Source of the DNA: an uncultured virus (IMG/VR IMGVR_UViG_3300005142_000031)
Taxonomy: Duplodnaviria; Heunggongvirae; Uroviricota; Caudoviricetes
IMG/VR virus record: IMGVR_UViG_3300005142_000031
Direction: 5' to 3' (one strand)
Length of the DNA: 20,000 bases
Shown: one piece after another, positions 676 to 18,195 of the stretch
Numbering within the stretch: position 1 is the first letter of the stretch
Layout: every line of letters begins with the position of its first letter
Notes under the pieces: generated by a model
What the model saw: only the letters and a program-made list of their open reading frames with translations
What the model was told of the DNA's origin: nothing
The model's database searches: none
Made by a program: the position numbers and the translations under genes

Positions 676-689
676 TGCAATCAATTGCA
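676..689. repeat. 14-bp palindrome copy 1, TGCAATCAATTGCA
   Basis: Read directly; intergenic between the terL stop and the SD of the next gene. Confidence 0.95.
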
Positions 690-691
690 AA

Positions 692-2641
692 CTAAGACGC
701 CAGGCGCTCCCGGCGCAGGCGCTCGGTGTAGCTCTGCGGGTCGTCCGGCGCCTCCCGGGCCGGGGTCTCGGTAGCATCGCTGCGGCGCAGGTAGTGTGGG
801 ATCTCGCTGATCGGCACGCCGTGGCCGACCCAGACATCGGTGGCCAGGGTCAGCCCGGAGATCACCCCCGCCACGGCGTCGGAGCAGTCCTTCGAGTAAT
901 TCACCGGGTGGTCGATCTTGCCGGTCTTGGGGTCGATCTCTAGCCGGACGAACTCGGTCTGAGCCTTGTCGTGCTCGGGCGCCTCGACCCGGCCGTCATA
1001 GAACGCCAGCTTGGCGATCTCGTAGTAGCGGTTCGACTCGTCGAGCGAGCGCAGCCCGGTCAGGAACCCCTTCTGGTTCAGCAGCTGCAGGGTGTCGGCG
1101 GACTGGTACTGGTCGGCCGAGGCCCAGCGCAGCGGCAGCCCGACCTCGCGCAGCTTGTAGAGCAGCGCCCGGATCTTGTCGTAGATGATCTCCGAGTTCT
1201 TCGGCGGTCGGACCTCGAGGATGGCGTCGAACCGGATCACCGGCAGCCACTCGTAGTGCCCCTCGGCCCGGGCGACCTTCTGGAACCGCGGCACATGGCC
1301 GATTGCCACACCGGTGGCGTCGCCGGTCTTCGACAGGTCGAGATGCACCCAGCGCGGCTCGTTCAGATTGACGAACCGCTTGGGGTAGATCAGCACCTGC
1401 GAGCTGGCGAAATCGGTGTCGGGCCGCGACAGCACCGAGGGTACCTTGCCGAAGCAGGCCGCCACCTTGTCCGGCTGCATCACGAACGGATAGAGCGCCA
1501 GGGTCGACACGCCGGCAATGTCGCGCAGCGAGGACAGCATGTCGCGCTCGAACTCGGTTCGATACTCCTCCGGCACCGCCATCACCAGGCGCTGGTCCTC
1601 TTCCGGGATCGTGGTCTCCTCGCCCGACTCCAGGATGCGCGGCCGGCGCGACACGTCGCCGACGAAAATGTGGAACCATTCGCCGGAGAAGGCGTCCGGC
1701 TTGACGTCCCAGACCCTCTTGTCGAAGACGAAGATCGAGGGGTCGTTCTTGGCCTCGTCGATCTTGATGTCGGTGAACTCGCCCGGGTAGCGCTTCGACG
1801 AGACCAGACAGAGCATGCCCGGCAGCTTGCCGCCCTGCATGAAGCGCGATTTCCGGCGCCGGACGATGGTGTTGTACATCTCGTTGGCCTGGTCGAACAC
1901 GCCGCCGTCGATCGCGTTCTTCGACTTCTCGACCACGGCCATGAAGTTGACCTCGTCGATGATGCCGCCGAACACGTTCTGGCCGATCGCCGCCGACACG
2001 TCGCCCGACAACGGCCGGACGATGATCCGCTTGGGGAACAGAAGCTCGCTCTCGATGTCCGGTCTATACGGGAACTTCGTCGAGAAGTAGGGCGACTGGC
2101 GCACCGCCGACTTGAACCGCTCGAACTCGACCGTCTTGGCCACCAGCTTGTTCAGCGACTGGAAGATGAACATGATCTCCGAGCTGGGATCGAGCCGGTA
2201 GGTGCGCTGCGGGCTGTGCAGACAGCTCAGCACGTAGAGCTGGTAAGCCGTCGTGTAGAGGGCCAGGGTCGTCTTGCCGGTGCCGATGCCGCCAGTGAGC
2301 ACCGCCTCGACATAGCGCCCGCCGTTCAGCTCAAACATGTCGTTGCGGATCGACGGATACAGCACCCCGGGCTGGTTCAGCATCTCGGTCGACTCGACGA
2401 AGGTCTGCGGGTCGACCGGCAGCCACCGGTAGTGCTTCTCCTCGCCCTTGAACTGCTTGAAATGGTTCAAGGCGCGCGACAGATAGGCGAGCCGCTCGCG
2501 CGAGTCCTCGTAGGTCTTCGAGAACCGCCAGACCACCTCGCCGGAGTAGCCCAGCCGGGCGCACAGCTTGAGCGCGGCCAGCAGGCGCTGCTCCAGGGTG
2601 AAGGCGTCACTGATCGACGGTGAGGTCAGTGACTTCGCCAT
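692..2641 (-). CDS. terL: Terminase large subunit
   Basis: Walker A LTGGIGTGKT, Walker B GGIIDEVNF, coupling-like LVSS, RNase H-like nuclease HLDLSKTGDATG and C-terminal KIDHP..SKDCSDA; 649 aa. Start approximate. Confidence 0.92.
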   Translation of the reverse strand: MAKSLTSPSISDAFTLEQRLLAALKLCARLGYSGEVVWRFSKTYEDSRERLAYLSRALNHFKQFKGEEKHYRWLPVDPQTFVESTEMLNQPGVLYPSIRNDMFELNGGRYVEAVLTGGIGTGKTTLALYTTAYQLYVLSCLHSPQRTYRLDPSSEIMFIFQSLNKLVAKTVEFERFKSAVRQSPYFSTKFPYRPDIESELLFPKRIIVRPLSGDVSAAIGQNVFGGIIDEVNFMAVVEKSKNAIDGGVFDQANEMYNTIVRRRKSRFMQGGKLPGMLCLVSSKRYPGEFTDIKIDEAKNDPSIFVFDKRVWDVKPDAFSGEWFHIFVGDVSRRPRILESGEETTIPEEDQRLVMAVPEEYRTEFERDMLSSLRDIAGVSTLALYPFVMQPDKVAACFGKVPSVLSRPDTDFASSQVLIYPKRFVNLNEPRWVHLDLSKTGDATGVAIGHVPRFQKVARAEGHYEWLPVIRFDAILEVRPPKNSEIIYDKIRALLYKLREVGLPLRWASADQYQSADTLQLLNQKGFLTGLRSLDESNRYYEIAKLAFYDGRVEAPEHDKAQTEFVRLEIDPKTGKIDHPVNYSKDCSDAVAGVISGLTLATDVWVGHGVPISEIPHYLRRSDATETPAREAPDDPQSYTERLRRERLAS

Positions 2642-3266
2642 CGATCACCTGCAGCAGGCCGTCGATCTCCTCGGTCCAGGAGAACTCCCGGACATTGCCG
2701 TCGGCATCCGTGACAGTACCGGTCATGTGCTTGGGCGCGCGCTTGATCGCTCCAGTCTCCAGCTGCAACTTGGCCAGGGTGCTGAGCATGTCGAACTGCA
2801 GGCGCATCTCGGACGAGACCTGCTGCATCAGCAGGGGCGATTCCTTCTCCCTCCTGTGCACCTTGTTCAGGCGCTCCTGCTGCATGTGGACCAGCGTCTC
2901 GATCTCGTCCATGGCATGCAGCCGGGCTTGCCAGGCCGGATCGGTCTCGCCGCGCACCTCGCGCACCACCTGGCGGAACTGGGCCTCGACAGGGTCGACC
3001 TCGCTCTCCTCCGCCGTCTCCTGGTCCTGGGCGTGGCGGCTGTCGAGCGGCACGATCTGGGTCTCGGCCTTGAGGTCGTCGCGCAGGCGGTACAGCGCCT
3101 TCTGCAGCGCCATCGGCTTGAGGTCCTCGCACTCGCCGCGCTTGTGCAGCATGCGCTGGATCGACGGCACCGACAGGCCCCGCTCGAGATCGTTGCAGAC
3201 CTCCTTGAAGCCCTCGACGCCGAGCCCCTGCAGCACACGGTACTTGGCTCGGTGCTTGATCGTCAT
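2607..3266 (-). CDS. Putative terminase small subunit
   Basis: 219 aa, immediately upstream of and overlapping terL; N-terminal HTH-like segment and coiled-coil-like middle. Positional inference. Confidence 0.55.
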   Translation of the reverse strand: MTIKHRAKYRVLQGLGVEGFKEVCNDLERGLSVPSIQRMLHKRGECEDLKPMALQKALYRLRDDLKAETQIVPLDSRHAQDQETAEESEVDPVEAQFRQVVREVRGETDPAWQARLHAMDEIETLVHMQQERLNKVHRREKESPLLMQQVSSEMRLQFDMLSTLAKLQLETGAIKRAPKHMTGTVTDADGNVREFSWTEEIDGLLQVIDGEVTDLTVDQ

Positions 3267-3267
3267 G

Positions 3268-4122
3268 TCACAGGCTCTTCACCATCTCGATCTGATCCTT
3301 GGTCGGCACCATCGACTCGGCCATCTCGATCTCGACCTGGGGCGTGGTCTCGACGATCCGGGCGACCACCTCGTCCAACTCGCCCTTTGCAATCAATTGC
3401 ATGAGGCCGCCGACCACGTCGTCGACGGTGCGGCTCTTCTGCCGGCACAGCTGGCAGACCGAGAGCACGGCATCGAAGCTCTTCTTGTTCTCGAGCCGCA
3501 GCCACACCGAGTCCTTGCCGCCATAATCGAGCACCATGTAGCCGAACGGCAGGCTGTCGCCGTAGACCGAGAACATCCGGTTCAGCAGCTTGGCCAGATC
3601 GTCGATGGTGCGCAGCTCCTTGGCCGCCTCCTTGAACTCCTTCTGCATGTCCTTGGGCAGCTGCTTCGCGGCGGCATCGATCAGCGCCTTGAACTCCTTC
3701 TCCTCGGCGAAGCCGAACATTTCCTGGAGCAGGTCGTCGCCGTACTTGCCGGCCACCTGGTTGTAGATGTCGACGAAGGCCTGCGGGTCCAGCTTGCCCT
3801 TGATGACGTTCATCCGGACCATCTGGAAGGTCTCGGCCTCCTCGTCGAAGTCCGGATCGGTGATCACCACCACCGGCACTTCCTCGAAGCCGAGGTAGCG
3901 CGCCGCCTCATAGCGGTGATGGCCGCCGACGATGCGATACTGGCCCTTCTGCTTGAGCGGCCGGACCAGGATCGGCTCGGTCAGTCCGGTCTGCTCCATG
4001 TTGTCGACCAGCAGGTCGAACGCCCGCCCCGACATCTTGTTCGGGTTCTTCGGGTTCGGCTGCAAGGCGTCGAGCGGCACCGTCTTGTACTCGTTCGACT
4101 TGGTCTTCTGGACCGCGGTCAT
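3268..4122 (-). CDS. ParB/Sulfiredoxin N-terminal domain protein
   Basis: VPLDALQPNPKNPNKM...GLTEPILVRP...YRIVGGHHRYEAARYLGFEEVPVVV is a ParBc-type motif set; uncharacterised C-terminal half. Confidence 0.88.
   Translation of the reverse strand: MTAVQKTKSNEYKTVPLDALQPNPKNPNKMSGRAFDLLVDNMEQTGLTEPILVRPLKQKGQYRIVGGHHRYEAARYLGFEEVPVVVITDPDFDEEAETFQMVRMNVIKGKLDPQAFVDIYNQVAGKYGDDLLQEMFGFAEEKEFKALIDAAAKQLPKDMQKEFKEAAKELRTIDDLAKLLNRMFSVYGDSLPFGYMVLDYGGKDSVWLRLENKKSFDAVLSVCQLCRQKSRTVDDVVGGLMQLIAKGELDEVVARIVETTPQVEIEMAESMVPTKDQIEMVKSL
3388..3401. repeat. 14-bp palindrome copy 2, TGCAATCAATTGCA (inside the ParB-like gene)
   Basis: Read directly; encodes (M)QLIA with AT-rich codons CAA TTG ATT GCA. Confidence 0.95.
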
Positions 4123-4685: not shown

Positions 4686-5093
4686 TCACCTTCCTTGGTT
4701 CCAGGCCGTGATGTCTTCCCAGTACAGTTCGCCCGGCCGCTCGCGCTTGTGCCAGCGGTAGCCCTCGCAGCTCTTCGGGGTGCGCACGCCGGAGAAGCGG
4801 TTGTCGAGGATCAGCACGCCGGCATCGGTATCGACCGACAGCACCGCGTGGTAGGTGCCGGTCTCGTCCCAGCACAGGGTGATCTTCAGGTCCTCGCGCG
4901 GATAGCCCATCTTCATCAGCCGGTGCAGCTTGGCCAGGGCATAGTCCTCGCAGTCGCCCTCCTCGTCCGGGATCTCCCAGAGATCGAGCCGGCCGTACTT
5001 CTCCGGATCGGGGACGTACTTGATCTGCGCGTTGATCGTGCGCTGCACCAGGCTGATCCGCGCAGCGTTCTCGTGGGTCAGCTGGATGGGCAT
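4686..5093 (-). CDS. Transglutaminase-like cysteine protease (BTLCP/LapG-like, peptidase C93), catalytic domain only
   Basis: INAQIKYVPDPEKYGRLDLW...GDCEDYALAK...HAVLSVDTDAGVLILDNR gives the Cys-His-Asp triad; ATG at 5093 with GGAGG SD; no signal peptide. Confidence 0.88.
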   Translation of the reverse strand: MPIQLTHENAARISLVQRTINAQIKYVPDPEKYGRLDLWEIPDEEGDCEDYALAKLHRLMKMGYPREDLKITLCWDETGTYHAVLSVDTDAGVLILDNRFSGVRTPKSCEGYRWHKRERPGELYWEDITAWNQGR

Positions 5094-5275
5094 CCCGGGT
5101 CCTCCGGATAGCGGCGGCAGTAATCCAGCCAGCCCGGCGGCGGCGCAACCAGGCCATCCGGAGCCGGCGGCAGGACGGGACGGCGCGGATCGGGAGCGCA
5201 GGACGCCAGAAGCGCTGCCAGCACCGTGATCAGGGCCCACAGCACCAAGGCTCGGCCGAGACAGCTGCGGTTCAT
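5078..5275 (-). CDS. Small Pro-rich lipoprotein resembling the BTLCP N-terminal segment
   Basis: Hydrophobic signal with lipobox LLASC, then PPPGWLDYCRRYPEDPGC; start overlaps the dNMP kinase stop. Confidence 0.7.
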   Translation of the reverse strand: MNRSCLGRALVLWALITVLAALLASCAPDPRRPVLPPAPDGLVAPPPGWLDYCRRYPEDPGCPSS

Positions 5276-5805
5276 CCCTCAACCTCCAGCTCGGCGATCT
5301 GGGCATCGAGCTGCGCATACAGCCGCTCCAGCGACCCCGCGTTGTCGATGGTCAGGTCGTGCGAAATCCGCTCCAGCTCGGTCTCCGAGCGGTGCTTCTC
5401 GTGGGTCGAGCGTCGGCCGGTCAGCCGCCACAGCTCGCCGCCGAGCTCTCGGATGCCTTCCGCCTCGCTGAAGAACCGCACGTCGTCGATCACCACGTCG
5501 TAGTCGACGCCGATCAGCGAGCGCTGCAGCAGGTGCACCCAGAACCGCTCGCCGATCAGGTCGCGGCCCCATTCGGTGCCCAGGGTCTGCATGGCGTAGG
5601 CCGGGGTCTGCCCCAGCAGCAGATCGCAGGGCTCGGTCTTGAGGTCCCCATTGAGCTGGCGCTCGTCGAGGCCGAGCGCGCGCAACATCGCCTTCAACGG
5701 CGTGGCGAAGGAGCGGCGCTCGAAACCGTGATGTCCCTGCAGGTGCAGCGCGGCGGTGGTCTTGCCGCTGCCGCGGGGGCCGATCAGGCCGATGATCATC
5801 CTCAC
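5272..5805 (-). CDS. Deoxynucleoside monophosphate kinase (phage dNMP kinase family)
   Basis: IIGLIGPRGSGKTT P-loop, SFATPLK, MQTLGTEWGR, VIDDVRFFSE, HRSE and IDNAGSLE motifs. Confidence 0.92.
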   Translation of the reverse strand: MRMIIGLIGPRGSGKTTAALHLQGHHGFERRSFATPLKAMLRALGLDERQLNGDLKTEPCDLLLGQTPAYAMQTLGTEWGRDLIGERFWVHLLQRSLIGVDYDVVIDDVRFFSEAEGIRELGGELWRLTGRRSTHEKHRSETELERISHDLTIDNAGSLERLYAQLDAQIAELEVEG

Positions 5806-5907: not shown

Positions 5908-7053
5908 TCAGTTGACGATCTTGCGCCGCGCGTAGTTCAGCGCGTCCAGGCTGTTGCGCATGGCCTCGACCATCGGCCACAGGCCCTCCCGAGTCGTGCC
6001 ATCGAAGTACAGCACGCAGGCCTCGCTCGATAGCTGGCGCAACAGTATCCCGCCCGCCCAGACCAGCCGCCGAGCCAGCAGGTCGCCCTCGGCTCGGAAC
6101 AGCAGGTCGCCCAGAAAGTCGACCCGCTGCTTGCCGTTCTCGAACGGCAGGTGCTGGATCAGCTTGGCGACCGGGGTCTCCATCTTGGCGAAATACGCCA
6201 GCGCGCGCTTGCCCTCCTGGGTATGCCAGTCGAACGTGTAGCTGGGATACGGGCCGATCATCTCGACCTCTGGCATCGGGTCGTCGTGCGTCTGGGGCCG
6301 GGGCCGGGTCCCGTCGCCCCACACCTGCTGCCAGAGCAGGGCGAAGGGCATCGACATCTGGTCGCATCCGATCGCGTTGGCCTGGCGCACCGTGTACAGG
6401 ACGTCGTCCGGCACGCCGAGCCCGCGCACTGCCTTGAACCAAGGGCCCACCCCGCCCTTGCGACTCGGAAACCCCGCCTTCGGATCTTCCGAGTCGCGCT
6501 GGCCACGCAGCAGGGTCAGCGCCATGATCCGCGTGGTCCGGGGCTGATGCTCGTCCAATGCAATCAATTGCAGTTCATGGTCGGACAGCTCGGCCATGTT
6601 CTGCCGGGCGGCATGCCAGTTCCGGTGCCAGTAGACCGCGACCGGCCCGTCGCAGGCGGTGCGGTCGCCCGGTGCCTCGCACAACCGCCTGACCAGGGCC
6701 ATCAGCCCCGGCTTCTCGCCGTGCTGCTCGCGCACCGCCTTGGCGCTGCAGAACCGCACCAGAGCCATCATGCCATCGAGATCGGCGATACCGACATCCT
6801 CGAAGCCGATAATGGTCAACCGGCGCCAGAGATAAGCCGGGTCGACCTGCCGCACGCCCTCCGCCATCTTCAGCGCGGTGTCGACATCGCCGCGGCGCAC
6901 CGCTTTCTGCAGAGCCGAGATCATCCGCCACTTGCGCTGCGGGTCCGACACGCGGACCGCCGGGGTCTCCGGGGCCTCGACGACCCACTGGCTGAGCAGG
7001 TCGTCGGCCTTCTGTTTCTGGGGCTTGTATCCCTGCACGTCCCTACCATCCAT
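5908..7053 (-). CDS. RarA/MgsA C-terminal-like helical protein without an AAA+ domain
   Basis: ISALQKAVRRGDVDTAL...AYLWRRLTIIGFEDVGIAD matches the RarA post-ATPase motif; no Walker A or B in the ORF. Confidence 0.7.
   Translation of the reverse strand: MDGRDVQGYKPQKQKADDLLSQWVVEAPETPAVRVSDPQRKWRMISALQKAVRRGDVDTALKMAEGVRQVDPAYLWRRLTIIGFEDVGIADLDGMMALVRFCSAKAVREQHGEKPGLMALVRRLCEAPGDRTACDGPVAVYWHRNWHAARQNMAELSDHELQLIALDEHQPRTTRIMALTLLRGQRDSEDPKAGFPSRKGGVGPWFKAVRGLGVPDDVLYTVRQANAIGCDQMSMPFALLWQQVWGDGTRPRPQTHDDPMPEVEMIGPYPSYTFDWHTQEGKRALAYFAKMETPVAKLIQHLPFENGKQRVDFLGDLLFRAEGDLLARRLVWAGGILLRQLSSEACVLYFDGTTREGLWPMVEAMRNSLDALNYARRKIVN
6559..6572. repeat. 14-bp palindrome copy 3, TGCAATCAATTGCA (inside the RarA-C-like gene)
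   Basis: Read directly; encodes (L)QLIA in the same frame as copy 2. Confidence 0.95.
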
Positions 7054-7074: not shown

Positions 7075-7102
7075 ATTCTACCAATTTAACCAGGCCAAGC
7101 AA
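7075..7102 (-). promoter_or_regulatory. Sigma70-like promoter TTGCTT-N16-TAGAAT
   Basis: AT-rich patch overlapping the glycosyltransferase stop, about 20 bp upstream of the 7053 start. Confidence 0.55.
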
Positions 7103-8594
7103 GATGGCCCGTGGCCGCACCGGCGTCGCGCAGGCCATGCCGGTACTTCAGCTTGAGTCGATACTCGTTCCAGGCAGTGCCCATCGAGTAGCTCGTGCGG
7201 TGCCGCGAGCGCTGATAGACGGTGTACAGGTGGCGCAGCGTGCCGGCCTCGTGCAGGCCCTTCAGCGCGTCGGCGAACAGGAAGTCGGGCTTGCCCCGGG
7301 CCCAGTCCAGCACGCCCGCGACCACCTCGTTCTCGTCGGACTCGCCGGTCCCGGTCCGACCGATCCGCTCGGCCAGGCCCTGCTCGAACCGGTCGAGGAA
7401 CTCGTCGAGCAGGAGCGGGAACCAGCGGTCGTTGCGCTCGGCCATCATCAGCGCGAACACGTCCTCGGACCACGCCCGGAACTTGGCATACATGCCCTCG
7501 TAGTCCTCGTAGAAGGCCTTGAGCACCGCATAGGCCTCGCTCTCGCCCGAGACCAGGAATGGGTAGTCCTTGCCGAAGGTCGCCTCGGACCAGGCCGCCC
7601 TGTTGAACACCCCCGGCACCCCCAGCATCACCGGTTCGATCAGGCTGAGCGGGTAATCCTCGTCGTCGGACAGGGCCAGGATCAGGTCGGCCTCTTCGCG
7701 CATCACCCGCCAGAACTCCTCGCGTGGACAGCGCTTCACCTCCAGGTGCTCATGCTTCTCGTAGTCCTCGGTGACCCGGCTGTTCGAGGTCAGCAGGAAC
7801 CGGATCGGCCGCCGGCCGCCCCAGTACACCCACTGCTTGAGGAACACCGACAGGGCGGGCTCCTTCGAGGTGCGCTCAGACTTGCGCCGCGACACCCGCT
7901 GGGTATAGGCCACCGCGAACGGCCGCTCATGGGCGGCGACCGCCTTGACCTGCTCGGCCGAACGGGTGTGCACCTGGTCGACCCGGATCGAGGACGCCGC
8001 CACCAGCCGATCGGACAGCTCGCGCACCCTGCTGGGCGGAAACCAGCTGCGGGCCTCCTTCAGGATCAGCCTGGTCGAGGCGAACGAGAAGATCAGCGAC
8101 AGGTCGGCGGCCATGTAGCCGGTCAGGGCGAGCAGATCGCCCGAGCGCGGGTCGGGCTGACACACCCTGTTCTTGAACGACATGATCGGGAACTCATCGT
8201 CGATCACGATCGCCTTGGTCCAGGCCCGGTTCGACCGGGACATCCACATCCTGAGCGTCGGCACTTGGGTCGAGCGGGCGGTGAGCAGCACGTCGAAATC
8301 CCACAGCGGCCCGTTGTAGGCGACGGCGTTCTCGATGTCGGCGTTGACCCGGGCGTACTCCTTCATCCGGTCGGGGTCGACCGACACCGGCACGTAGCGC
8401 ACCCGCGGGTCGCGGATCAGCCAGTCATGGTCGATCGTCCAGCTGCCGCCCGAGGTCTCCGGGTCGGGCAGCAGGTAGTACACGAACAGGTCGTCCCGCC
8501 GCTCCAGCAAGTAGCGGATCATGGTCTGCATCTTGAAGTGGCAGGAGCAGAGCTGCGGGTCATTGGTGCTGATCGGATCGACGAGCAGTCTCAT
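7086..8594 (-). CDS. GT-B fold glycosyltransferase (GT4-like), ~502 aa
   Basis: Start MRLLVDP at 8594 (ATGA overlap with the WbqC-like stop); ADLILALSDDEDYPLSLIEPVMLGVPGV contains the E-x7-E motif; basic C-terminal extension. Confidence 0.78.
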   Translation of the reverse strand: MRLLVDPISTNDPQLCSCHFKMQTMIRYLLERRDDLFVYYLLPDPETSGGSWTIDHDWLIRDPRVRYVPVSVDPDRMKEYARVNADIENAVAYNGPLWDFDVLLTARSTQVPTLRMWMSRSNRAWTKAIVIDDEFPIMSFKNRVCQPDPRSGDLLALTGYMAADLSLIFSFASTRLILKEARSWFPPSRVRELSDRLVAASSIRVDQVHTRSAEQVKAVAAHERPFAVAYTQRVSRRKSERTSKEPALSVFLKQWVYWGGRRPIRFLLTSNSRVTEDYEKHEHLEVKRCPREEFWRVMREEADLILALSDDEDYPLSLIEPVMLGVPGVFNRAAWSEATFGKDYPFLVSGESEAYAVLKAFYEDYEGMYAKFRAWSEDVFALMMAERNDRWFPLLLDEFLDRFEQGLAERIGRTGTGESDENEVVAGVLDWARGKPDFLFADALKGLHEAGTLRHLYTVYQRSRHRTSYSMGTAWNEYRLKLKYRHGLRDAGAATGHLAWPG

Positions 8595-9349
8595 GCCCAG
8601 GCACTCATGTCGACGGCAGTGCGATTGGCCGTACCGGTGCCCAGGTCGGCGCCGATAGCCTGCCGGCACCAATCCGGACCGGCAACGAACAGCGGGTCGA
8701 GAGCGGACAGCCGCAGCGTCGGCTCGGGGCAGAGCCGCGGGGCGTCCGGGGCCGGCCAGTTCTGGCCCCAAAGCCGGATACCCTTCGGCGCGAACCGGCC
8801 TTTCTCGAAATAGTTCTCGATCGACACCACTCCCTGGATGTAGTCCGTGCCGCCTGCCGCCTGGGTCAGTCGGGCCAGCCATTCAGTTGGCTCCTCGGGG
8901 CGCACCGGGACCAACTGCTTGGACTTGCGGATCACCGGATAAAGCCCGAGCTCGATCGCCAGCCAGTCCATGGTCGTCTCGGCCAGCGACGCCAGCGTCC
9001 AGGGTCCCTTGTCGACCAGATGGTCGAGCAGACCGTCGAACGATGTCTTGACCTCGCGGTAGCCGTCGCACTTGCCGTAGACGTGCTGGCAGCGCTTCTG
9101 CAGCTTGTCGGCCCACTGGTCGAGCTCGGCCACCGCGATCTCGTCCATCGGCCGGCGGTTCTTGTCGCGGCAGGGCACCGGGATCTTGTGCACGCCGTCC
9201 TTCTGGCCGAGCTGAAACCAGCTGTGCTCGGCCGAGCGGCTGTGCTGGGCCTCCTCCATGATCACCACGACGTGGCAACGGGCGAAGCGCTCGTACATGT
9301 AGAGCGGCGGGAACATCAGAGGCTGGGTCGCGGTCACCCAGATCGGCAT
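8591..9349 (-). CDS. WbqC-like protein (putative aminoacyl/glycyl transferase)
   Basis: ATQPLMFPPLYMYERFARCHVVVIMEEAQH, IPVP, HVYGK, TEWLARLTQAAGGTDYIQG and LSALDPLF follow the WbqC pattern; start MPIW after CCAAGGAGG. Confidence 0.8.
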   Translation of the reverse strand: MPIWVTATQPLMFPPLYMYERFARCHVVVIMEEAQHSRSAEHSWFQLGQKDGVHKIPVPCRDKNRRPMDEIAVAELDQWADKLQKRCQHVYGKCDGYREVKTSFDGLLDHLVDKGPWTLASLAETTMDWLAIELGLYPVIRKSKQLVPVRPEEPTEWLARLTQAAGGTDYIQGVVSIENYFEKGRFAPKGIRLWGQNWPAPDAPRLCPEPTLRLSALDPLFVAGPDWCRQAIGADLGTGTANRTAVDMSAWA

Positions 9350-9372
9350 GGTGCCCTCCTTGGCAGCTAGGA

Positions 9373-10833
9373 TTATTGTCCCTTCCACTGGACGATCCAG
9401 GACGGCGCCTTGACTCCGCCCTCGAGCCGCACGACGTAACCCAGCTCGGTCAGCGCCCAGGCCAGCCAGGGCACCGAGTAGCGGCCGAGCGTGCCACTGT
9501 CGCGCGCCGCGGCGACCGCCCGGACCACCTGGTCCAGGGTCTGGCCGTCGACCCGGCCGACGCCGGCGACCGCCTCCAGGGTGGCGCCCATCGACTTGAA
9601 CCGGCCGAGTTCCAGGCCCGGGTTCACCGTCCGCCAGGCGTCCTCCATGATCGCGCCGATACGGTCACCGACCGCGGCCGGGTCGCGCATATCGAGCTCG
9701 ATCAGGGCGTTGGCATAGGCGGTGTCGGCCGCCGCGTCGAAGTCGGCGAGCAGCGTCTTGAGCGCCGCCATGATCGCCTCGACGTCGTAGCTGTCGACCG
9801 AGAACGGGCTGTTCACCTCACCGGCCGAATACCGGGTCGCCTTGTGCAGGTGCGGACTGCCCGAGCACACCGCCTCGATGCTCGACATGTACAGGCCGTT
9901 GTAGTCGGTCAGGTAGGCGGACAGCTCGCAGTCGTAGAGCGCGTCCATCACCTCGGCGCGCGGGCGCTGGTGCAGCACCTCGATCGAGTCGCCGGCCGCG
10001 TCGATCACGTTGCGCGCCCAGTCGTCGAGCTTGGACTGGGTTGCCAGCACGGTCCGGATCGGCGTGCCATTGCAGCGCAGGGCGTGCACCGCCCGGATCA
10101 GCGGCTCGGTCTGCTCGCCGGCCTCCTCCTCGCTGCGCCCGAACGAGCGCGCCACGAACACCCGGAAGTCGGCGCCGCGGCGCTGCCGGCGCACCGGGTC
10201 GCGCGGCGGCCGGTAGGGCCGGTACACCCGGTGCACGTTGGCCATGGCCTGGCGGGCGTTGCTGGGCGACAGCAGGGCGCGGATGTTCTGGTGCAGCACG
10301 GTCACTTCGTTGGGGACATGCAGCACCGCCGGGCTCTCCAGCGTCGACAGCACCTGGAGGTGCATCAGCTCGCGGATGAAGTCTGGGTTCGAGCCGCCTC
10401 GGCCGGCGCGGGACTTGCCGTCCTCATAGCCGAACACGCAGTCGAAGAAGGTGACCACCGGCACGTTCAGCCGAGTATGGCCCTTCCTGTAGAGGAACCG
10501 CCGGATCGCCAGTGCCGCCTCGGGCGTGCCCAGGAACACCACGTCGTATGGCAGGTCGGTCAGCTCAGGCATGAGAAGCCGGGCCAGCTCGGGCGGAATC
10601 AGGCCGCCGGTGAAGTTCAGGTCCTGCGGATAGTCGACCGGCCGCACCGTCAGGTTCGGATGGCCACCGAACCACCGGGTGTGGTCGTACTTCCAGTCCC
10701 TGCCCGAGGGCATGGCGACCACCACCGCGTGTCCGGCGGCGGCCAGCGCCCCGGCGAGCTCGGACTGGTGGACGATGCCGGAGGACTGCGCCTCGTCCTT
10801 GAAGTAGAGGTAGGGCAACATCAGCACGCGCAT
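9373..10833 (-). CDS. Second GT-B fold glycosyltransferase, ~486 aa
   Basis: MRVLML...SGIVHQSELAGALAAAGHAVVV N-terminus; PRAEVMDALYDCELSAYLTDYNGLYMSSIEAVCSGSP (degenerate N-x7-E motif). Confidence 0.78.
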   Translation of the reverse strand: MRVLMLPYLYFKDEAQSSGIVHQSELAGALAAAGHAVVVAMPSGRDWKYDHTRWFGGHPNLTVRPVDYPQDLNFTGGLIPPELARLLMPELTDLPYDVVFLGTPEAALAIRRFLYRKGHTRLNVPVVTFFDCVFGYEDGKSRAGRGGSNPDFIRELMHLQVLSTLESPAVLHVPNEVTVLHQNIRALLSPSNARQAMANVHRVYRPYRPPRDPVRRQRRGADFRVFVARSFGRSEEEAGEQTEPLIRAVHALRCNGTPIRTVLATQSKLDDWARNVIDAAGDSIEVLHQRPRAEVMDALYDCELSAYLTDYNGLYMSSIEAVCSGSPHLHKATRYSAGEVNSPFSVDSYDVEAIMAALKTLLADFDAAADTAYANALIELDMRDPAAVGDRIGAIMEDAWRTVNPGLELGRFKSMGATLEAVAGVGRVDGQTLDQVVRAVAAARDSGTLGRYSVPWLAWALTELGYVVRLEGGVKAPSWIVQWKGQ

Positions 10834-10849
10834 CGCCAACGGGCCTCCG

Positions 10850-10863
10850 TGCAATCGATTGCA
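10850..10863. repeat. 14-bp palindrome copy 4, TGCAATCGATTGCA
   Basis: Perfect palindrome, intergenic, abutting the GGAGG SD of the glycosyltransferase. Confidence 0.95.
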
Positions 10864-10869
10864 GGCGGA

Positions 10870-11433
10870 TCAGCGGGCGACGGTGACGACGCCGAGCAGG
10901 TAGCTGGAGTCCCCGGGGACCGGGCTGACAGCGACTGGGGCGTCGAAGGCCTCGCACAAGGACCGCACCGAGGTCGCCTGCAGCCGGCCGCCGTAGTGCA
11001 GCGGGTCGAGCCAGGAGACGACGACAAAGCGCTCGGCGAGGCTGCGCAGGGTCTGGCAGAACCGGGTGCGATCGGCCGGATCGACAGTTGGCAGCACGCC
11101 GGCGGCGACCACCACGTCGAAGCGCCGCGGCGTCTCCTGGGCGAAGCCGTCCAGGCCGCTCTTGAGGATCTCCAGCTTCGGATGCCGGGCCCGGGCGATG
11201 TTCCAAATCCAGTCGATCTGCTCGATGCCGGTATAGGCGACCGCCGGCGAGATGCAGTCGGCCAGGTCGCCGTAGCCACAACCCACGTCGAGCACCGAGA
11301 TTGGGTCGAGCGACGATACCAGCTCCGAGGTGGCGACCAGCCGGGCGTCATGCAGGTGGTCCGGGGTCAGCAGCCCCTCCGGGGTGCCACGCTTGTCGTC
11401 GGGCTGGCTCTCATAGATCGAGACCGCATCCAT
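10870..11433 (-). CDS. Class I SAM-dependent methyltransferase (small-molecule/sugar type)
   Basis: SVLDVGCGYGDL motif I, YTGIE, FDVVVAAGVL; no DPPY/NPPY or PCQ motif of DNA methyltransferases; start MDAVS after GGAGG. Confidence 0.85.
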   Translation of the reverse strand: MDAVSIYESQPDDKRGTPEGLLTPDHLHDARLVATSELVSSLDPISVLDVGCGYGDLADCISPAVAYTGIEQIDWIWNIARARHPKLEILKSGLDGFAQETPRRFDVVVAAGVLPTVDPADRTRFCQTLRSLAERFVVVSWLDPLHYGGRLQATSVRSLCEAFDAPVAVSPVPGDSSYLLGVVTVAR

Positions 11434-11452
11434 CCTGGACTGTCCTCCCTGG

Positions 11453-12133
11453 TCATCGCACCATCTTGCGCAGAACGTGGAACAGCTCGGCATAACCCAG
11501 CCCCGACTCGAGGCCGCGCATCCGCGCCATCGCCCGGGCCGCCTCGAACGACCAGCAGTGACCGTTCTGGCGGATCTGGGTCCGGTAGCAGCCGAGCATG
11601 GCGATCTTGGCGTCGAGGCCGGTCTCGCCGATTTCGACATACATGCCGCCCTTGCCGGCGTCGGCCGAGGACCCCGCGCCCCAGGCGGTTGCCGGGTATT
11701 CGTAGGCGGCGATCAGCTGGACGCCCCGGGTCAGGGCCGAGGGACGGGTCGCCGCCAGACAGGCGCGGTAGGCGATCTCGTGGTCCTGGTGGCTGGACGG
11801 CAGCGGAATCAGGATCTCGGTCGGGTCGACGGTGCGGATCTCGTCCTCGACGAACGACACGATGTCGGCGATCGGCAGGGTGTCGAGCAACCGGTCCTTG
11901 TCGTAGAAGCCGATCCGGCAACTGCCGCCGACCTGGTCCATCGACCGGCGCAGCTCCTGGACCCGCTCCTGCCAGGTGACCTCGCGGCCGAGATGGCCGA
12001 AGAACACGTTGCCGACCGCCAGCACCGAGACATGAACCTTGCCGCCGTCCGCCGCCACCCGGTGCATGTAGCCGCCGCAGCCGAGCTCCGCGTCGTCGGC
12101 GTGCGGGGCGACCACCATCAAGCGCTTCTCCAC
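11453..12133 (-). CDS. PIG-L/LmbE family N-acetylglucosamine deacetylase
   Basis: VVAPHADDAELGCGG and SSHQDH metal/catalytic motifs, AYE, KIAMLGCYRTQ, RG...YAELF; GTG start after AAGGAGG. Confidence 0.92.
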   Translation of the reverse strand: MEKRLMVVAPHADDAELGCGGYMHRVAADGGKVHVSVLAVGNVFFGHLGREVTWQERVQELRRSMDQVGGSCRIGFYDKDRLLDTLPIADIVSFVEDEIRTVDPTEILIPLPSSHQDHEIAYRACLAATRPSALTRGVQLIAAYEYPATAWGAGSSADAGKGGMYVEIGETGLDAKIAMLGCYRTQIRQNGHCWSFEAARAMARMRGLESGLGYAELFHVLRKMVR

Positions 12134-12215
12134 GCCCGTTCCTCCTTGAACATCCGGCGTCTTCGGATCGGCGCAGTCTGGCAAATCGGACCCGGCGAGG
12201 CACCCGGCACGACGA

Positions 12216-12244: not shown

Positions 12245-12258
12245 TGCAATCGATTGCA
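12245..12258. repeat. 14-bp palindrome copy 5, TGCAATCGATTGCA
   Basis: Perfect palindrome, intergenic, upstream of the PIG-L gene and adjacent to the hairpin. Confidence 0.95.
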
Positions 12259-12752: not shown

Positions 12753-13263
12753 TCAGAACGGGTTGGTGCCCCCGCCATCGCCGATGACGAACACATCGAC
12801 GCAATCCGCCAGCAGGTTGGCGTTGGCCATCGTGCCGTGCAGGCTGATCACAAAGTCCGTCCCCCGCGGCAGGTCGACCGTCATCCGCCAGGACCGGGCG
12901 AAGGACTCGAAGAAGGCCTCATCCCATCCGAGGTAGATGTTGATCGAGGTCTCCGTGATCGCCGAAGCCGTGTGCGCCTGGGAGTAGCCGCCGACGGTGA
13001 TAACCACCCGACCCACGTCCCCCTGGGGCAGCGACCAGGCCGGATCGGTGAGTGCGAGTTGCAGGCCGGTCGAGAACACCGCCAGGACGACCTCTCGGCC
13101 CGTCTGCGGGTACTACGTCATCATCGAGCAGAAGACCTCATCCTGCAGGTTACGGTAGGCCTCGACCCACCACACCCCGCCGGCGCTGTCTGCCCACAAC
13201 GTCTCCGCCTGGACGGCCGGGGCCGTCAGAACTGCGGCGGTCGCCAGCAAGCAGTCTCGACAT
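12753..13263 (-). pseudogene. Disrupted exported protein gene (signal peptide ... C-terminal TNPF)
   Basis: One frame reads LLATAAVLTAPAVQA-ETLWADSAGGVWWVEAYRNLQDEVFCSMMT*YPQTGREVVLAVFSTGLQL...GGTNPF with an in-frame TAG at 13113-13115; the ATG at 13263 (MSRLL) is one base out of frame, or TTG at 13250 is the start. Confidence 0.65.
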
Positions 13264-13711
13264 CCCCGAAGAACCCGTTGGCGCCGCAAGTATGGCAGGT
13301 TGCCGTGTCGGTCCAGTTAACGACGCAGAACTTCTCGGCACTGCTATCCCATCGCACCTCGGCCGGCCGGGTGATGTCGGTCGATCCGCATTCCGGGCAG
13401 TGCAGGGTGATCTTGGGCGTGCCGACCGCCGACTCCGGCTCGGGGGCGGAGGCCGGATCGTGCGACCCCTCCCAGGTCAGGGCGGCATAGAGCCGACCTG
13501 CCAGATCCTCGACCCAGCCCTCCAAGTCGGGAGACAGGTCGAACAGCGCGGCGATCAGCCGGGTGCGGTCCTTTGGGTCGAGCTCGAAGATGATGCTCGA
13601 CAATCCGGACCTGAGCACGATCCGCTTGTTCGGATACCACAAGCCATCGGTCGACACCAGCAACTCCGTGCCGTCTTTGGTGGCGTCGTTGAACGGCCCG
13701 TATTCTGTCAT
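13226..13711 (-). CDS. Paralog-family member F, fused to a C-terminal zinc ribbon (CPEC...CHTC)
   Basis: Start MTEYG at 13711 (ATGA overlap); contains DRTRLIAALFDLSPDLEGWVEDLAGRL. Confidence 0.78.
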   Translation of the reverse strand: MTEYGPFNDATKDGTELLVSTDGLWYPNKRIVLRSGLSSIIFELDPKDRTRLIAALFDLSPDLEGWVEDLAGRLYAALTWEGSHDPASAPEPESAVGTPKITLHCPECGSTDITRPAEVRWDSSAEKFCVVNWTDTATCHTCGANGFFGDVETACWRPPQF

Positions 13712-13953
13712 GGCATGTCCTCCATGGCGGCGACCAGCTTGGTGGCGAGCTGCTCCCGCCAGTCGGGGTGCTCCAGGCTGACCCCGTAGAGCGCGGCGAC
13801 CAGGGTGAGCTTGCCGGACGGTTTCAGCACCAATCCGTTCATCGGGAGTAGCTCGGCCGAACCGTCCGACAGGGTGCGCAGCTTCATATGCCCGTTGCAG
13901 ATGTCGGCGCCGCACTCGCAGTTGACGATGACTTCAGTGTCAACCAAGACCAT
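13708..13953 (-). CDS. Paralog-family member E (81 aa)
   Basis: MVLVDTEVIVNCECGADIC...KLTLVAALYGVSLEHPDWREQLATKL; start overlaps the upstream stop. Confidence 0.8.
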   Translation of the reverse strand: MVLVDTEVIVNCECGADICNGHMKLRTLSDGSAELLPMNGLVLKPSGKLTLVAALYGVSLEHPDWREQLATKLVAAMEDMP

Positions 13954-14207
13954 CACGCACCCTCCAATGCCGCGACCAGACGCTCGGCCAGGACCTCTCG
14001 GAAATTCGGGGTGTCTTGCGGCACGCCATAGAGGGCGGCGACCAGTCGCAGCCTCTCCTCCTCGTGCAGGGTGACGTTCACCGACGCGGCGTTCTGGCCG
14101 TAGACGTCGAGGGTTACAGCCCCCACTCCGGATCTCGCCGTCACGATGGTAATGCCGTAGTCGCACTTTGGATCGCCGCAGGCGCAGTCGATCTGGAAGA
14201 AGGACAT
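13953..14207 (-). CDS. Paralog-family member D (84 aa)
   Basis: MSFFQIDCACGDPKC...ERLRLVAALYGVPQDTPNFREVLAERL. Confidence 0.8.
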   Translation of the reverse strand: MSFFQIDCACGDPKCDYGITIVTARSGVGAVTLDVYGQNAASVNVTLHEEERLRLVAALYGVPQDTPNFREVLAERLVAALEGA

Positions 14208-14464
14208 CACTCGGCCTCCTCGATCAGCGTGACCAGCCTTGCGGCCAGGCGCTCCTTCCAACCTTCCTGCTCGGAGTCGACGCAGGCGATCGCCGCGATG
14301 ACGTGGATGATGTCCTCGGTCCTGAGATCGATCGCCGGCATATCGAATTCGGGGTCGGGCTTGATGTCGAGCTGGCAGTAGTTCTTTGTCCTGAACACCT
14401 GCAGCGTGGTCTTGTCGTTGGGGTCTTCGTCCTTGAAGAGCCGGTTCACGGCGAGATTGGTCAT
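14207..14464 (-). CDS. Paralog-family member C (85 aa)
   Basis: MTNLAVNRLF...DIIHVIAAIACVDSEQEGWKERLAARL. Confidence 0.8.
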   Translation of the reverse strand: MTNLAVNRLFKDEDPNDKTTLQVFRTKNYCQLDIKPDPEFDMPAIDLRTEDIIHVIAAIACVDSEQEGWKERLAARLVTLIEEAE

Positions 14465-14676
14465 AGCCGCCCCCACTGCTCGAACAGCTCGTCCTCGATG
14501 CGGGTGCGCTCCTCGCGGGTCAGCTGGCCGGGGTCGACCTTGGCGCCGGTCGGCCAGAACACGGTAGTGCCCCAGAACTCCGCCGTCGCCGGGTCGCGGG
14601 TCGGCTCGAAGGTGCCGCGGGCGATCACGGGCATTCCGTCGCCGATCCTGGTGTCGATGAAGACTTCGTCGAGCAT
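14461..14676 (-). CDS. Hypothetical protein (71 aa), lacking the shared paralog motif
   Basis: ATG after CCCAAGGATGGG; stop overlaps the next start; preceded by a promoter-like element. Confidence 0.68.
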   Translation of the reverse strand: MLDEVFIDTRIGDGMPVIARGTFEPTRDPATAEFWGTTVFWPTGAKVDPGQLTREERTRIEDELFEQWGRL

Positions 14677-14715
14677 CTTGCGGTCCCATCCTTGGGTTGC
14701 TGAAGTCCTGTAGTC

Positions 14716-14743
14716 ATTCTGACACAGGACGAGACAGGGTCAA
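14716..14743 (-). promoter_or_regulatory. Sigma70-like promoter TTGACC-N16-CAGAAT
   Basis: Intergenic; spacer shares GTCCTGTG with the promoter at 123-150; inverted repeat GTCCTGT...ACAGGAC (14705-14730) covers the -10. Confidence 0.55.
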
Positions 14744-14985
14744 GAGAAAGGATTGGCCTCCAGGTCCTGGACCAGCCAGTGGGCGAGCCGCTCCTTCCAG
14801 CCTGTTTCGGTGATGTCGACACCACAGAGGCCGGCAACCAAGGTCAGGCGATCCTCCCAGGCGAGGTCGAACGACGGGAGGTCACCGACGAACAGCAGCA
14901 CCTCGTGCTGTGTGTCGTCCCAGACCACTTTCATCTGAAAGGACGGCTCGCCGTTGTCGTGGAGCGTCGTCTTCAAATGGGCCAT
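14740..14985 (-). CDS. Paralog-family member B (81 aa)
   Basis: DRLTLVAGLCGVDITETGWKERLAHWL. Confidence 0.8.
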   Translation of the reverse strand: MAHLKTTLHDNGEPSFQMKVVWDDTQHEVLLFVGDLPSFDLAWEDRLTLVAGLCGVDITETGWKERLAHWLVQDLEANPFS

Positions 14986-14986
14986 G

Positions 14987-15253
14987 TCACCCCTCTCCCA
15001 TGTCGTCGAGCAGGGCCTTGGCGAGCTGCTCGCGCCAACCCGGAGCTCCGTGCTGGATGCCGTACAGAGCCGCGATCATCGTGATCCGATCCGAGTCGGC
15101 GAGATGCATGATGACGTCATAATCCGCAAAGTCAGGATCGTCCGGCTCCGTCGCCCTGATCGTGGTGTAGTGGGTCGACGGCTCCCAGCGGGTAAGGTGC
15201 AGGGACGTTCCGTTGCCGCTGACGCAGAAAAAGCCGGCCTTGAGCTTCTCCAT
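14987..15253 (-). CDS. Paralog-family member A (88 aa)
   Basis: DRITMIAALYGIQHGAPGWREQLAKAL. Confidence 0.8.
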   Translation of the reverse strand: MEKLKAGFFCVSGNGTSLHLTRWEPSTHYTTIRATEPDDPDFADYDVIMHLADSDRITMIAALYGIQHGAPGWREQLAKALLDDMGEG

Positions 15254-15547: not shown

Positions 15548-15561
15548 TGCAATCGATTGCA
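15548..15561. repeat. 14-bp palindrome copy 6, TGCAATCGATTGCA
   Basis: Perfect palindrome directly abutting AAGGAGG upstream of the double-HTH gene. Confidence 0.95.
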
Positions 15562-16753: not shown

Positions 16754-17076
16754 CCTTCGACTCCCTCCTTGGGTTGGCGGGCCACCGCCCTCCGCCCGGC
16801 GACATAGCCGGCGTGGTGGCCCTTGGCATACGGATCGTCGCCGAGCTCCCGGTCAACCGGGATCAGCTGCTGGCCGAGCACGCCGAACGCGGCGTTCAGG
16901 TTCTCGACCGTCGGGTTGCCGCCCCGCTCGAACCAGCGTCGTATCGTCTCGAAGCTGACCCCGGACCGCTCGGCCAGGTCCTGCGGGCCGATGCGCTGCC
17001 GGGCCATCTCCGCGGCGAGGCGCTTGACCAACGGCACCGCGGTGTCCCGGCACCTGATCCTGCGGAACCGACGCAT
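16750..17076 (-). CDS. XRE/Cro-family HTH regulator
   Basis: IGPQDLAERSGVSFETIRRWFERGGNPTVENLNAAFGVLG. Confidence 0.85.
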   Translation of the reverse strand: MRRFRRIRCRDTAVPLVKRLAAEMARQRIGPQDLAERSGVSFETIRRWFERGGNPTVENLNAAFGVLGQQLIPVDRELGDDPYAKGHHAGYVAGRRAVARQPKEGVEG

Positions 17077-18164
17077 CAGGCGACAGTCCCGGGCAGCGGG
17101 CCCTTGATCGGCTTGTTGGCCTGCTTCTGGCGGATCTGGTCGATCTTCAGCCAGACCCGGGCGAGCTCGGCCTCACCGAGTCGGTGCATGTCCATCTTGT
17201 GGGCGAGGCACAACGCCGCCAGGGTAACCATCACCCCGCCGACCTCCTGGGGCGGGTGGCCGATCTCTCGGCCGTAGACGTAGTCGACCAGGGCCAAGGC
17301 GTCATCCTTCGACAGACCCAGGGCCTGGACGAGCTCGATCGCCTCCTCGAGGAACCGGCAACCCCGCTCGTAGACGTCGGTGGCGATCGTCTCGCCGAAG
17401 CAAGCCGTCAGCCAGGGTTGCACCCGGTCCTGGAACGCCCCGGCCGCACTGTCGGTGCCGTCCGGCGTCGGCGCCGCAGCGAGCATGGCGCGGTAGCGGA
17501 TGGTATGCTTCTCGCGCACCGACACGTAGTCTGCCGTCGGCCGATGGTCGGGCGACATCGCCTTGCACGCCGCGTCGATCATGGCACCGGTTGGTTCGGG
17601 CGGCACCACACTCCAGCCCGGCGGCACAACCTGCCCCTTCAGGACATTGAGCACCCAGTCGCGGCGCGCCTCGGCAGTCTCGGCGTCCGGGCCATAGACT
17701 TCGATGACATGGCCGTGGCTGGGCTGGTCGATGCCGGCGACGTACATCTGAATGTCCCGATCATCGACTGCCCCCTCGACATCGGAACTGGGCATCAACG
17801 TGCCATCGAACGGGCTGTCCTCGGGCGGGAAGGCCCATCCCTCCTTGGGATCGGAAGGCTCTACCGTGTCGTAGCCGGCGAGCTCGTCCGGGGTCGGCCG
17901 GCGCCACTCCCCCTTGTACTCGACGTCGTACTCGCCCCAGCAGTCGGGATGTCGGACCTCGACCAGACGCGACAGGCCTTCCCACACCCACAGGCCGTGT
18001 CCGGGCGGGTCGCCCAGGCCCAGATCGTTGGTCGCCTCGCTGACGTTATTGATGTCCTCGTCGATGCCGGGGTTGTCGTCTTCAGGCGGCGCAAGGTCCT
18101 TCACCACCCAACCCGTGCCGGTGATCTTGGAACAAGCCACCAGGACCTTGATCTTCATTGCCAT
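17076..18164 (-). CDS. Mosaic protein: acidic N-terminal domains, EaA/Ead-like segment and MazG-like (all-alpha NTP pyrophosphatase) C-terminal domain
   Basis: PPGWSVVPPEPTGAMIDAA...YRAMLAAAP, then FQDRVQPWLTACFG...RFLEEAIELVQA...QEVGGVMVTL. Confidence 0.68.
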   Translation of the reverse strand: MAMKIKVLVACSKITGTGWVVKDLAPPEDDNPGIDEDINNVSEATNDLGLGDPPGHGLWVWEGLSRLVEVRHPDCWGEYDVEYKGEWRRPTPDELAGYDTVEPSDPKEGWAFPPEDSPFDGTLMPSSDVEGAVDDRDIQMYVAGIDQPSHGHVIEVYGPDAETAEARRDWVLNVLKGQVVPPGWSVVPPEPTGAMIDAACKAMSPDHRPTADYVSVREKHTIRYRAMLAAAPTPDGTDSAAGAFQDRVQPWLTACFGETIATDVYERGCRFLEEAIELVQALGLSKDDALALVDYVYGREIGHPPQEVGGVMVTLAALCLAHKMDMHRLGEAELARVWLKIDQIRQKQANKPIKGPLPGTVA

Positions 18165-18181
18165 CGTCCCCTCCTTGGGTT

Positions 18182-18195
18182 TGCAATCGATTGCA
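18182..18195. repeat. 14-bp palindrome copy 7, TGCAATCGATTGCA
   Basis: Perfect palindrome between the stop at 18196 and the SD of the 18164 gene. Confidence 0.95.

Follow-up and report, generated by a model that had tools for sequence, protein, structure and literature searches.

In the window analysed here (the whole stretch of 20,000 nucleotides from the uncultured virus IMGVR_UViG_3300005142_000031), a 14-bp palindrome, TGCAATC(G/A)ATTGCA, recurs seven times. The palindromes are part of a genome-wide lattice that is real, selected, and shared by the phage group containing DLP5, SIO-2, RcZahn, and SM1, in which the present phage sits. We regard it as quite probable that the palindromes are the docking sites of the product of phrog_17202, an unannotated core gene of this group. 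On balance, we favor the reading that a dimer of this putative binder would act as an autorepressor and, on its evenly spaced sites, as a coat that marks or organizes the phage DNA.

The seven copies were found at the coordinates given by the original prediction (Table 1), and 200 shuffled versions of the window contained a mean of 0.00. Those at 676, 3388, and 6559 are the A variant and share one orientation, while the other four are perfect palindromes, and no further copy appeared in the window with up to three mismatches allowed (seven observed, 0.51 expected). The gaps between the copies agreed with those described before, with a coefficient of variation (CV) of 0.30 (p = 0.007 versus random placement in the window). 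Their reported setting held as well: five copies are intergenic and two (3388 and 6559) genic, four are followed within 10 nt by a Shine-Dalgarno-like purine run with a start codon 17–24 nt off, and none overlaps the promoters of the window (four sigma-70-like sites). Both genic copies impose codons used 4–8% of the time. In the alignment column of the 3388 copy, the palindrome is also present in DLP5, G014, and RHph_Y1_11, where it encodes other amino acids. The source contig (G000; 42,791 bp, 66% G+C, 45% complete) bears one 13-bp variant and, with up to two mismatches accepted, 13 copies of the palindrome; one A variant outside the window lies in reverse orientation. Site spacing on the contig has a CV of 0.34 (p = 0.0007 versus random placement and p = 0.0003 versus random gene junctions). 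No good promoter was found downstream of any of the 13 contig sites (best score, 10.5).

The lattice was compared among 18 sequences, namely this contig, 10 sequences picked by terminase homology, and 7 picked for holding the motif; RcDurkin, JP1, P11VFA, and Samunavirus are the more distant terminase relatives (closer ones in Table 1). In 17 of the 18 sequences, a nested form of TGCA-N6-TGCA showed the highest enrichment among spaced palindromes, and in the remaining one it came second, with lineage-specific variants in DLP5 (TGCAATCAATTGCA), JP1 (TGCAAACGTTTGCA), and P11VFA (TGCAACNNGTTGCA). With per-genome matrices, site density was 1.7–6.5 per 10 kb, with one palindrome every 2–4 kb. The spacing was under-dispersed at p ≤ 0.001 in 15 of the 18 sequences, also when compared with random gene junctions; the evenness was weaker in G009 (p = 0.04) and G010 (p = 0.07), and the partial record BHU-1 was not even. 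Over 613 sites, the conservation of the flanks ended at ~16 bp and the site profile was symmetric, and both orientations were found in DLP5 as well as on this contig. Roughly one site in two lies between genes, in many cases after a stop codon and ahead of the next ribosome-binding site, and 282 of the 613 are genic, occur in all three frames, and mostly encode LQSIA/VQSIA-like peptides. TGCA-N6-TGCA was counted 0–5 times in seven distant terminase relatives versus 15–48 times in six group members, and the lattice ranges over phages of Vibrio, Stenotrophomonas, Pseudomonas, Rhizobium, and Rhodobacter. Altogether, the earlier proposal of a genome-wide protein-binding array was supported by the conservation of the palindrome in related phages, its genic copies kept by way of rare codons, and bacterial DNA without sites.

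The lattice also occurs across tail types: G001 and G005 possess contractile-tail-like genes yet bear the same lattice as the siphoviruses, and the overlap of G001 with the latter comprises the replication module, the binder gene, and terL only. Second enriched palindrome families were seen in JP1 (L210–L214; 28 copies of a GTATATAC-type core with GTAT arms) and in L295 (TAGTA-N-TACTA). We found no account of the motif or the phrog_17202 protein in the literature covered, which excluded supplements and most subscription papers; in the main text of the paper on RcZahn and RcDurkin (PMC8601537), ‘palindrom’ and ‘motif’ are absent.

Clustering of the predicted proteins left phrog_17202 as the sole widespread gene that looks DNA-binding. 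This gene follows ruvC and was found in 16 of the 18 sequences, being absent in the fragments G000 and G005; it is because phrog_17202 lies outside the present contig fragment that the likely binder was missed when the window was read by itself. All of the complete lattice genomes examined have the gene, and none of seven terminase-related outgroup phages does. The helix-turn-helix and XRE genes of the window, which had been offered as binders, fell outside the 75 most widespread gene clusters. The family has matches in 63 phage records (Vibrio, Pseudomonas, Rhizobium, Rhodobacter, Stenotrophomonas, Aeromonas, and Agrobacterium) and, at E ≤ 1e-10, in 1,083 clusters formed at 50% identity. We further chose 70 non-redundant loci by the phrog_17202 protein and not by the motif, counting loci replaced by longer contigs apart. 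The top de novo 14-bp palindrome was no more than two letters from the TGCAAT arms in 66 of the 70, some of them weak; among the replaced loci, G026 had a weak variant and G025 five TGCA-N6-TGCA in 40 kb. In 10 genomes, phrog_17202 lies between recombination genes and terS-terL, 1.8–5.4 kb before terL. RcZahn gp66, RHph_Y1_11 EVC30_035, and DLP3 gp62 are members of the family. According to PMC7326821, DLP3 gp62 is outside the 21 proteins of DNA-released ghost particles, which decides nothing on a DNA-bound role in the virion.

The protein encoded by phrog_17202 appears, from an AlphaFold model, to resemble the DNA-binding domain of ParB/KorB without the CTPase, followed by a dimerizing tail. 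The model of residues 100–349 of the G014 protein (predicted local distance difference test, pLDDT, 89) matches the ParB-parS DNA-binding domain (6s6h; Z 8.1 over 118 residues, root-mean-square deviation 4.6), Spo0J (1vz0; Z 7.3), and KorB-operator (1r71; Z 6.7). Searching the phrog_17202 profile against the sequences in PDB yielded no match. The N-terminus is variable and acidic, and the N-terminal CTPase domain of ParB was not detected: PF02195 matched none of eight phrog_17202 members and was absent anywhere in SIO-2 and G001. The C-terminal part is weakly similar to ribbon-helix-helix proteins (Z 3.6–3.9). For the C-terminal 101 residues, the predicted homodimer score was 0.45, with the best control at 0.00, the contacts agreeing at least 84% and a pLDDT of at least 64; 20 of 30 known dimers passed the mark used for homodimers, compared with 1 of 23 monomers. 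DUF3102 (PF11300) matched only the copy of G001 (E = 0.004; 17.8 bits, below the gathering cut-off of 24.4), and its appearance in Atlas at 0.84 is a lead only.

The putative recognition helix reads Y-R-K-A in most phrog_17202 members. In the complete genome G020, where the helix is R-S-K-A (Arg to Ser), TCCAATNNATTGGA occurs 12 times, while it is found zero times in the 17 other genomes. RcDurkin and G012, which form a separate lineage, have lost the arginine as well, and the same base is relaxed to G/A in their sites. Among 100 non-redundant rows, 55 with an enriched core were kept, three noisy rows being dropped by hand. The fraction of G at position 2 had a median of 1.0 (minimum 0.64) in the 50 rows with the arginine and was 0.99, 0.79, 0.61, 0.10, and 0.00 in the five rows without it. 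Recognition-helix residues set the specificity of ParB and Noc (PMC7383237). A link between helix position 73 or 77 and the outermost base looked suggestive (Mann-Whitney p of 0.06 and 1e-4, respectively; 55 rows) but was set aside, the rows being related and the independent pairs too few. The half-site TGACAT, pure in G023 (L460–L461) and mixed with TGCAAT in G029 (L452–L456), is not explained by the helix. Other natural variants of the half-site are TCCAAT in G020 and GGCAAT in G021.

In 13 of 16 genomes, the 250 nt upstream of the candidate binder gene phrog_17202 contain a site, compared with 17% of 2,438 genes, and an upstream site was found in 44 of the 70 further loci, with ~12 expected. 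Behind 33 of the 55 sites upstream of phrog_17202 there is a sigma-70 promoter, and 24 of them are 7–9 nt from the -35 box. The proximal operators of KorB are 4–10 bp upstream of the promoter, and KorB with a defective clamp keeps its ability to repress there (PMC11790492); the spacing at the phrog_17202 promoter thus falls within that of KorB-type operators. By analogy, the phrog_17202 product most likely represses its own gene. Over all genomes, a strong sense-strand promoter stands behind 36 of 615 sites (30 of them at 7–11 nt), versus 1 in the antisense direction, and none is on this contig, leaving 94% of the sites without a strong promoter behind. A second conserved position of the site is before the prohead-protease gene (cluster 15) of the relatives, 10–91 nt before the start in 10 of 13 genomes.

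Both gene and sites were also met in a bacterial genome, G037, which carries phrog_17202 and 26 exact sites, five of them flanking the gene, and no other core genes of the phage group were found near its phrog_17202. None of 60 family relatives of G037 possesses phrog_17202; 58 of them lack the site and the other two have one and two. The sites of G037 are in islands riddled with insertion sequences and containing an integrase, a DUF3987 primase/helicase, terminase fragments, a reverse transcriptase, groES/groEL, and type I restriction genes (Table 1). These islands possibly represent the capture or mimicry of the mark of the phage. Since many of the sites belong to one repeated segment, they count as one event.

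We propose the following for the lattice. From N- to C-terminus, the phrog_17202 protein would consist of the variable, acidic tail, a helix-turn-helix of ParB/KorB type for reading one half-site, and a ribbon-helix-helix-like part for dimerization, and would be made from its own sigma-70 promoter by the host polymerase. A dimer bound 7–9 nt upstream of the -35 box would limit its own synthesis, in the manner of KorB on its proximal operators, and may repress other early promoters too in some lineages. The dimer, devoid of a CTP clamp, would not be able to slide and would occupy only its sites. Coverage would then need sites everywhere, because nothing slides, and this need would lead selection to keep a site every 2–4 kb, which would explain both the even spacing and the cost in rare codons. 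The bound dimers would make up an even coat that marks and organizes the phage DNA, and the most plausible stage for it to serve is the transition from replication/recombination to packaging. A marking or organizing function is favored over a pure roadblock because the gene resides between the recombination genes and terS-terL and most sites are off promoters. If phrog_17202 is the binder, we lean slightly toward such a structural or marking role.

Several observations weigh against this proposal. As phrog_17202 is off the present contig, its presence in this phage is deduced from the relatives. G005 (81% complete) has 28 sites and no phrog_17202, the whole replication module being missing as well, and conversely a 34-kb fragment (G027; L450–L451) and a 21-kb locus (L372) carry phrog_17202 with no detectable lattice. 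The top structural match of the model was the N-terminal domain of the Rubisco accumulation factor Raf1 (Z 9.2; model m6da56c2114a3), a Z near 8 is moderate for helical domains and may reflect a common arrangement, and Foldseek returned no match for the phrog_17202 model at E ≤ 0.001. The dimer prediction may have passed through likeness to solved ribbon-helix-helix dimers. The co-change of helix and base amounts to two independent losses; with two losses on the tree, the independent-pair tests, which had 2–3 pairs, cannot reach significance. JP1, lacking the arginine, retains the G, and G023 has an altered site (TGACATTAATGTCA) despite an ordinary helix. Upstream sites are also usual at two other genes, that of the prohead protease (10 of 13) and one in the tail region (6 of 7). 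Many sites of G037 are copies of one ~450-bp non-coding segment that has no DNA match to the 18 phage sequences. Finally, the purpose of the coat is argued indirectly, from even spacing, the 94% of sites lacking a strong promoter, and gene order.

The same binder might instead serve transcription alone, as a genome-wide repressor or roadblock in the manner of stoperators, silencing the lytic genes of a plasmid-like prophage or damping read-through. The existence of the promoter-proximal class of sites speaks for such a role, and of the 12 strong promoters in each of VH2_2019 and P11VFA, 7 and 5, respectively, carry a site. The intergenic half of the sites, often squeezed between stop codon and ribosome-binding site, points the same way. 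DLP3 and DLP5 form lysogens, and the latter was recovered as a phagemid (PMC7326821), which also speaks for the roadblock reading. On the other hand, a strong promoter is missing behind the great majority of the sites, the 13 of this contig included, and the sites are spaced more evenly than gene junctions picked at random. Moreover, the sites are symmetric and unoriented, whereas stoperators are asymmetric and oriented (PMC4351075). We consider a purely transcriptional role rather improbable, albeit one to be reckoned with.

It is unlikely that the palindromes are dispersed packaging sites read by the terminase small subunit, so that packaging could start anywhere on phage DNA and not on host DNA. 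Even spacing would suit such a self mark, the RcZahn genome is circularly permuted, RcDurkin packages by the headful mechanism (PMC8601537), and phrog_17202 itself is close to terL. Nevertheless, no more than 12 of 35 sequences yielded a member of the presumed terS family, and G037 bears sites and phrog_17202 with no other phage core gene nearby. The promoter-proximal placement and the co-change of helix and base point to phrog_17202 rather than to TerS. The presumed terS product is the remaining rival as binder or partner of the lattice.

The ParB-like protein of the window was another binder put forward earlier, and that it would load on the palindromes as a CTP clamp and guide DNA-modifying glycosyltransferases is very improbable. 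Its gene does have a ParB N-domain and carries a positionally conserved site, and DLP3 DNA resists 15 restriction enzymes (PMC7326821). The ParB N-domain was, however, not found in the complete lattice-bearing genomes of SIO-2, G001, G020, and G033, nor in the 100 kb read of lattice-bearing G021 and G029. Of 35 sequences, 13 have the ParB type of the window, and these are exactly the ones with the glycosyltransferase, recalling the non-DNA-binding ParBs of phages (PMC13229309). We thus dismissed this protein as the binder for its absence from complete lattice genomes and its tracking of the glycosyltransferase. A ‘split ParB’, in which the ParB-like protein and phrog_17202 would share a dimerization domain, was rejected as well, with no profile similarity between the two. 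The lattice differs also from parABS, its sites being evenly spread over whole genomes and not clustered at an origin. The bound dimer could recruit the ParB-like protein of the window in a secondary role.

Some phage ParBs without a DNA-binding domain activate a DNA-modifying enzyme, namely dioxygenases (PMC13229309), and these activators appear to be the model that best fits the ParB-like gene of the window. The two are alike in nucleotide-binding and dimerization domains and in the tie to a modifying enzyme. They differ in that the partner here is a glycosyltransferase, versus a dioxygenase in the published system, and the ParB-like gene has no phyletic tie to the lattice. The stretches 3268–4122 and 7086–12184 hold the ParB N-domain protein, two glycosyltransferase-like genes, WbqC, a methyltransferase, and a PIG-L deacetylase. 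They probably constitute a DNA-modification module, the glycosyltransferase at 7086..8594 being no part of the lattice. The group members without the ParB type of the window have a ParB-methyltransferase pair instead, or none.

Recruitment of a host regulator of LacI/GalR/CcpA type, for which the sites would be operators, is hardly credible. In its favor, the palindrome of the window fits TGNAANCGNTTNCA, which we take to be the operator pattern of this family. The central CG is not conserved in the group, the center being CG, CA/TG, TA, AA/TT, or AT depending on the lineage, and the two central bases are C (67%) or T (24%) and G (58%) or A (31%) over the 613 sites. A single strain is host to both RcZahn and RcDurkin, whose variants nevertheless differ, and the lattice extends over phages of all the host genera named above. 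In each of two binned bacterial genomes, the copies kept to a single contig (16 of 16 and 9 of 10), and 58 of 60 genomes of one bacterial family had no copy, a comparison that did not take in the host of the present phage.

The chance that the palindrome works as a short messenger RNA (mRNA) hairpin tuning translation or processing is close to nil: a 5-bp stem formed in six of seven local folds and four copies are immediately 5' of a ribosome-binding site, but the stem is worth only -2.5 kcal/mol, deviations destroy pairing much more frequently than they preserve it (17 compensatory changes and 38 G-U versus 122 A-C and 137 other mismatches in 3,080 sense-orientation arm pairs), and the genic copies are spread over all three frames. 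A promoter element for a phage activator was rejected, since most sites have no conserved downstream element.

Dispersed palindromes bound by one dimeric protein have precedents. MatP, acting on matS, organizes a chromosome region in this manner; the lattice is similar in that a dimer would sit on dispersed palindromes and differs in that MatP-matS belongs to the host chromosome and has another fold. In operation, the lattice is most like KorB/OB of the IncP-1 plasmid RK2 (PMC11790492, PMC3597684), with which it shares palindromes dispersed over the replicon in a proximal class and a larger distal class and, going by the model, may share a ParB-type DNA-binding domain. Nonetheless, phrog_17202 is not a KorB, because the CTPase, and with it the sliding clamp, is missing. 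Further differences are the ~16–56 evenly spaced sites per genome on phage chromosomes, and that no parA/incC or korA partner was identified (ParA was not among the Pfam/PHROG matches of the 35 window proteins, and no genome-wide ParA search was made). ParB-parS and Noc-NBS (PMC7383237) offer a likeness in the predicted fold of the DNA-binding domain and in helix residues that would change specificity, while phrog_17202 has another site, no N-terminal CTPase, and no clustering at the origin.

Among phages, the 17-bp dyad repeat of Cluster O mycobacteriophages (PMC4351075) is similar in its more than 30 copies genome-wide, genic and intergenic and mostly off promoters; a dimeric binder was predicted for it, none was named, and it stood unexplained. 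It differs in sequence and arm spacing and belongs to unrelated phages, and the passages on Cluster O report no evenness. The stoperators of Cluster A mycobacteriophages likewise provide many genic and intergenic sites for one phage protein, and differ from the lattice in their asymmetry and their orientation with transcription (PMC4351075), the lattice sites being symmetric and present in both orientations. The lattice is a variant of the dispersed-operator kind with a named candidate binder.

Apart from the lattice, six small tandem genes at 13226–15253 share, by eye, a C-terminal motif (~L-x-A-A-L-Y-G ... W-x-E-x-L-A-x-x-L) and look like an expanded paralogue family; none of the six had a Pfam/PHROG match. 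The window also encodes a transglutaminase-like cysteine protease (4686–5318; PF06035), a membrane-anchored GmrSD C-terminal/HNH-like protein (18443–19153; PF07510), and, ending at position 94, a pyruvate phosphate dikinase-like gene common to the DLP5/SIO-2 group.

Table 1. Palindrome copies and genes of the window discussed in the text, and palindrome-bearing islands of the bacterial genome G037
Feature	Coordinates	Strand	Remarks
Palindrome copy, A variant	676..689	.	3 nt past terL stop, next start 21 nt on
Terminase large subunit	692..2641	-	47-55% identity to RHph_Y1_11, RcZahn, DLP5/DLP3, Vibrio SIO-2-like phages
Presumed terminase small subunit	2607..3266	-	Gene before terL; identity inferred from position
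ParB N-terminal-domain protein	3268..4122	-	PF02195, phrog_26387
Palindrome copy	3388..3401	.	Within parB-like gene; codons M-Q-L-I-A, 4 codons of relative use 0.04-0.08
Palindrome copy	6559..6572	.	Within 381-aa gene 5908-7053; codons L-Q-L-I-A, rare codons
Glycosyltransferase-like gene	7086..8594	-	Same phyletic pattern as ParB-like gene
Perfect palindrome	10850..10863	.	Intergenic; glycosyltransferase gene start 17 nt on
Perfect palindrome	12245..12258	.	Intergenic; stop 5 nt before, PIG-L deacetylase gene 112 nt after
Perfect palindrome	15548..15561	.	Intergenic; abuts Shine-Dalgarno of small helix-turn-helix gene
Perfect palindrome	18182..18195	.	Intergenic; stop 1 nt before, next start 24 nt after
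Satellite-like islands with palindrome	G037:C7:100000-162000, G037:C30:11000-29000, G037:C6:64000-69000 (L472-L482)		One carries phrog_17202

Dispersed dyad repeats of phages, such as that of Cluster O, have so far been without a binder or a function, and here a candidate protein, a residue-base pair, and natural specificity variants can be named. The group has cultured members, namely RcZahn and RcDurkin on Rhodobacter capsulatus, RHph_Y1_11, and SIO-2, so that, with the protein and the residue-base pair in hand, the question is directly testable. The phrog_17202 family is large, and, if the proposal is true, a ParB-family domain would be working in it without CTP. We tentatively extend this to a sequence-programmed nucleoid in phages of 80–130 kb, built from a clampless ParB domain and a lattice of sites, in which the coat might tell self from host DNA, in the service of packaging, replication, or a defense against nucleases, and integrative satellite-like elements might have taken over both gene and sites so as to be treated as self. 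If the coat does mark self DNA, these phages would possess a means of self-recognition that needs neither base modification nor a single pac site.

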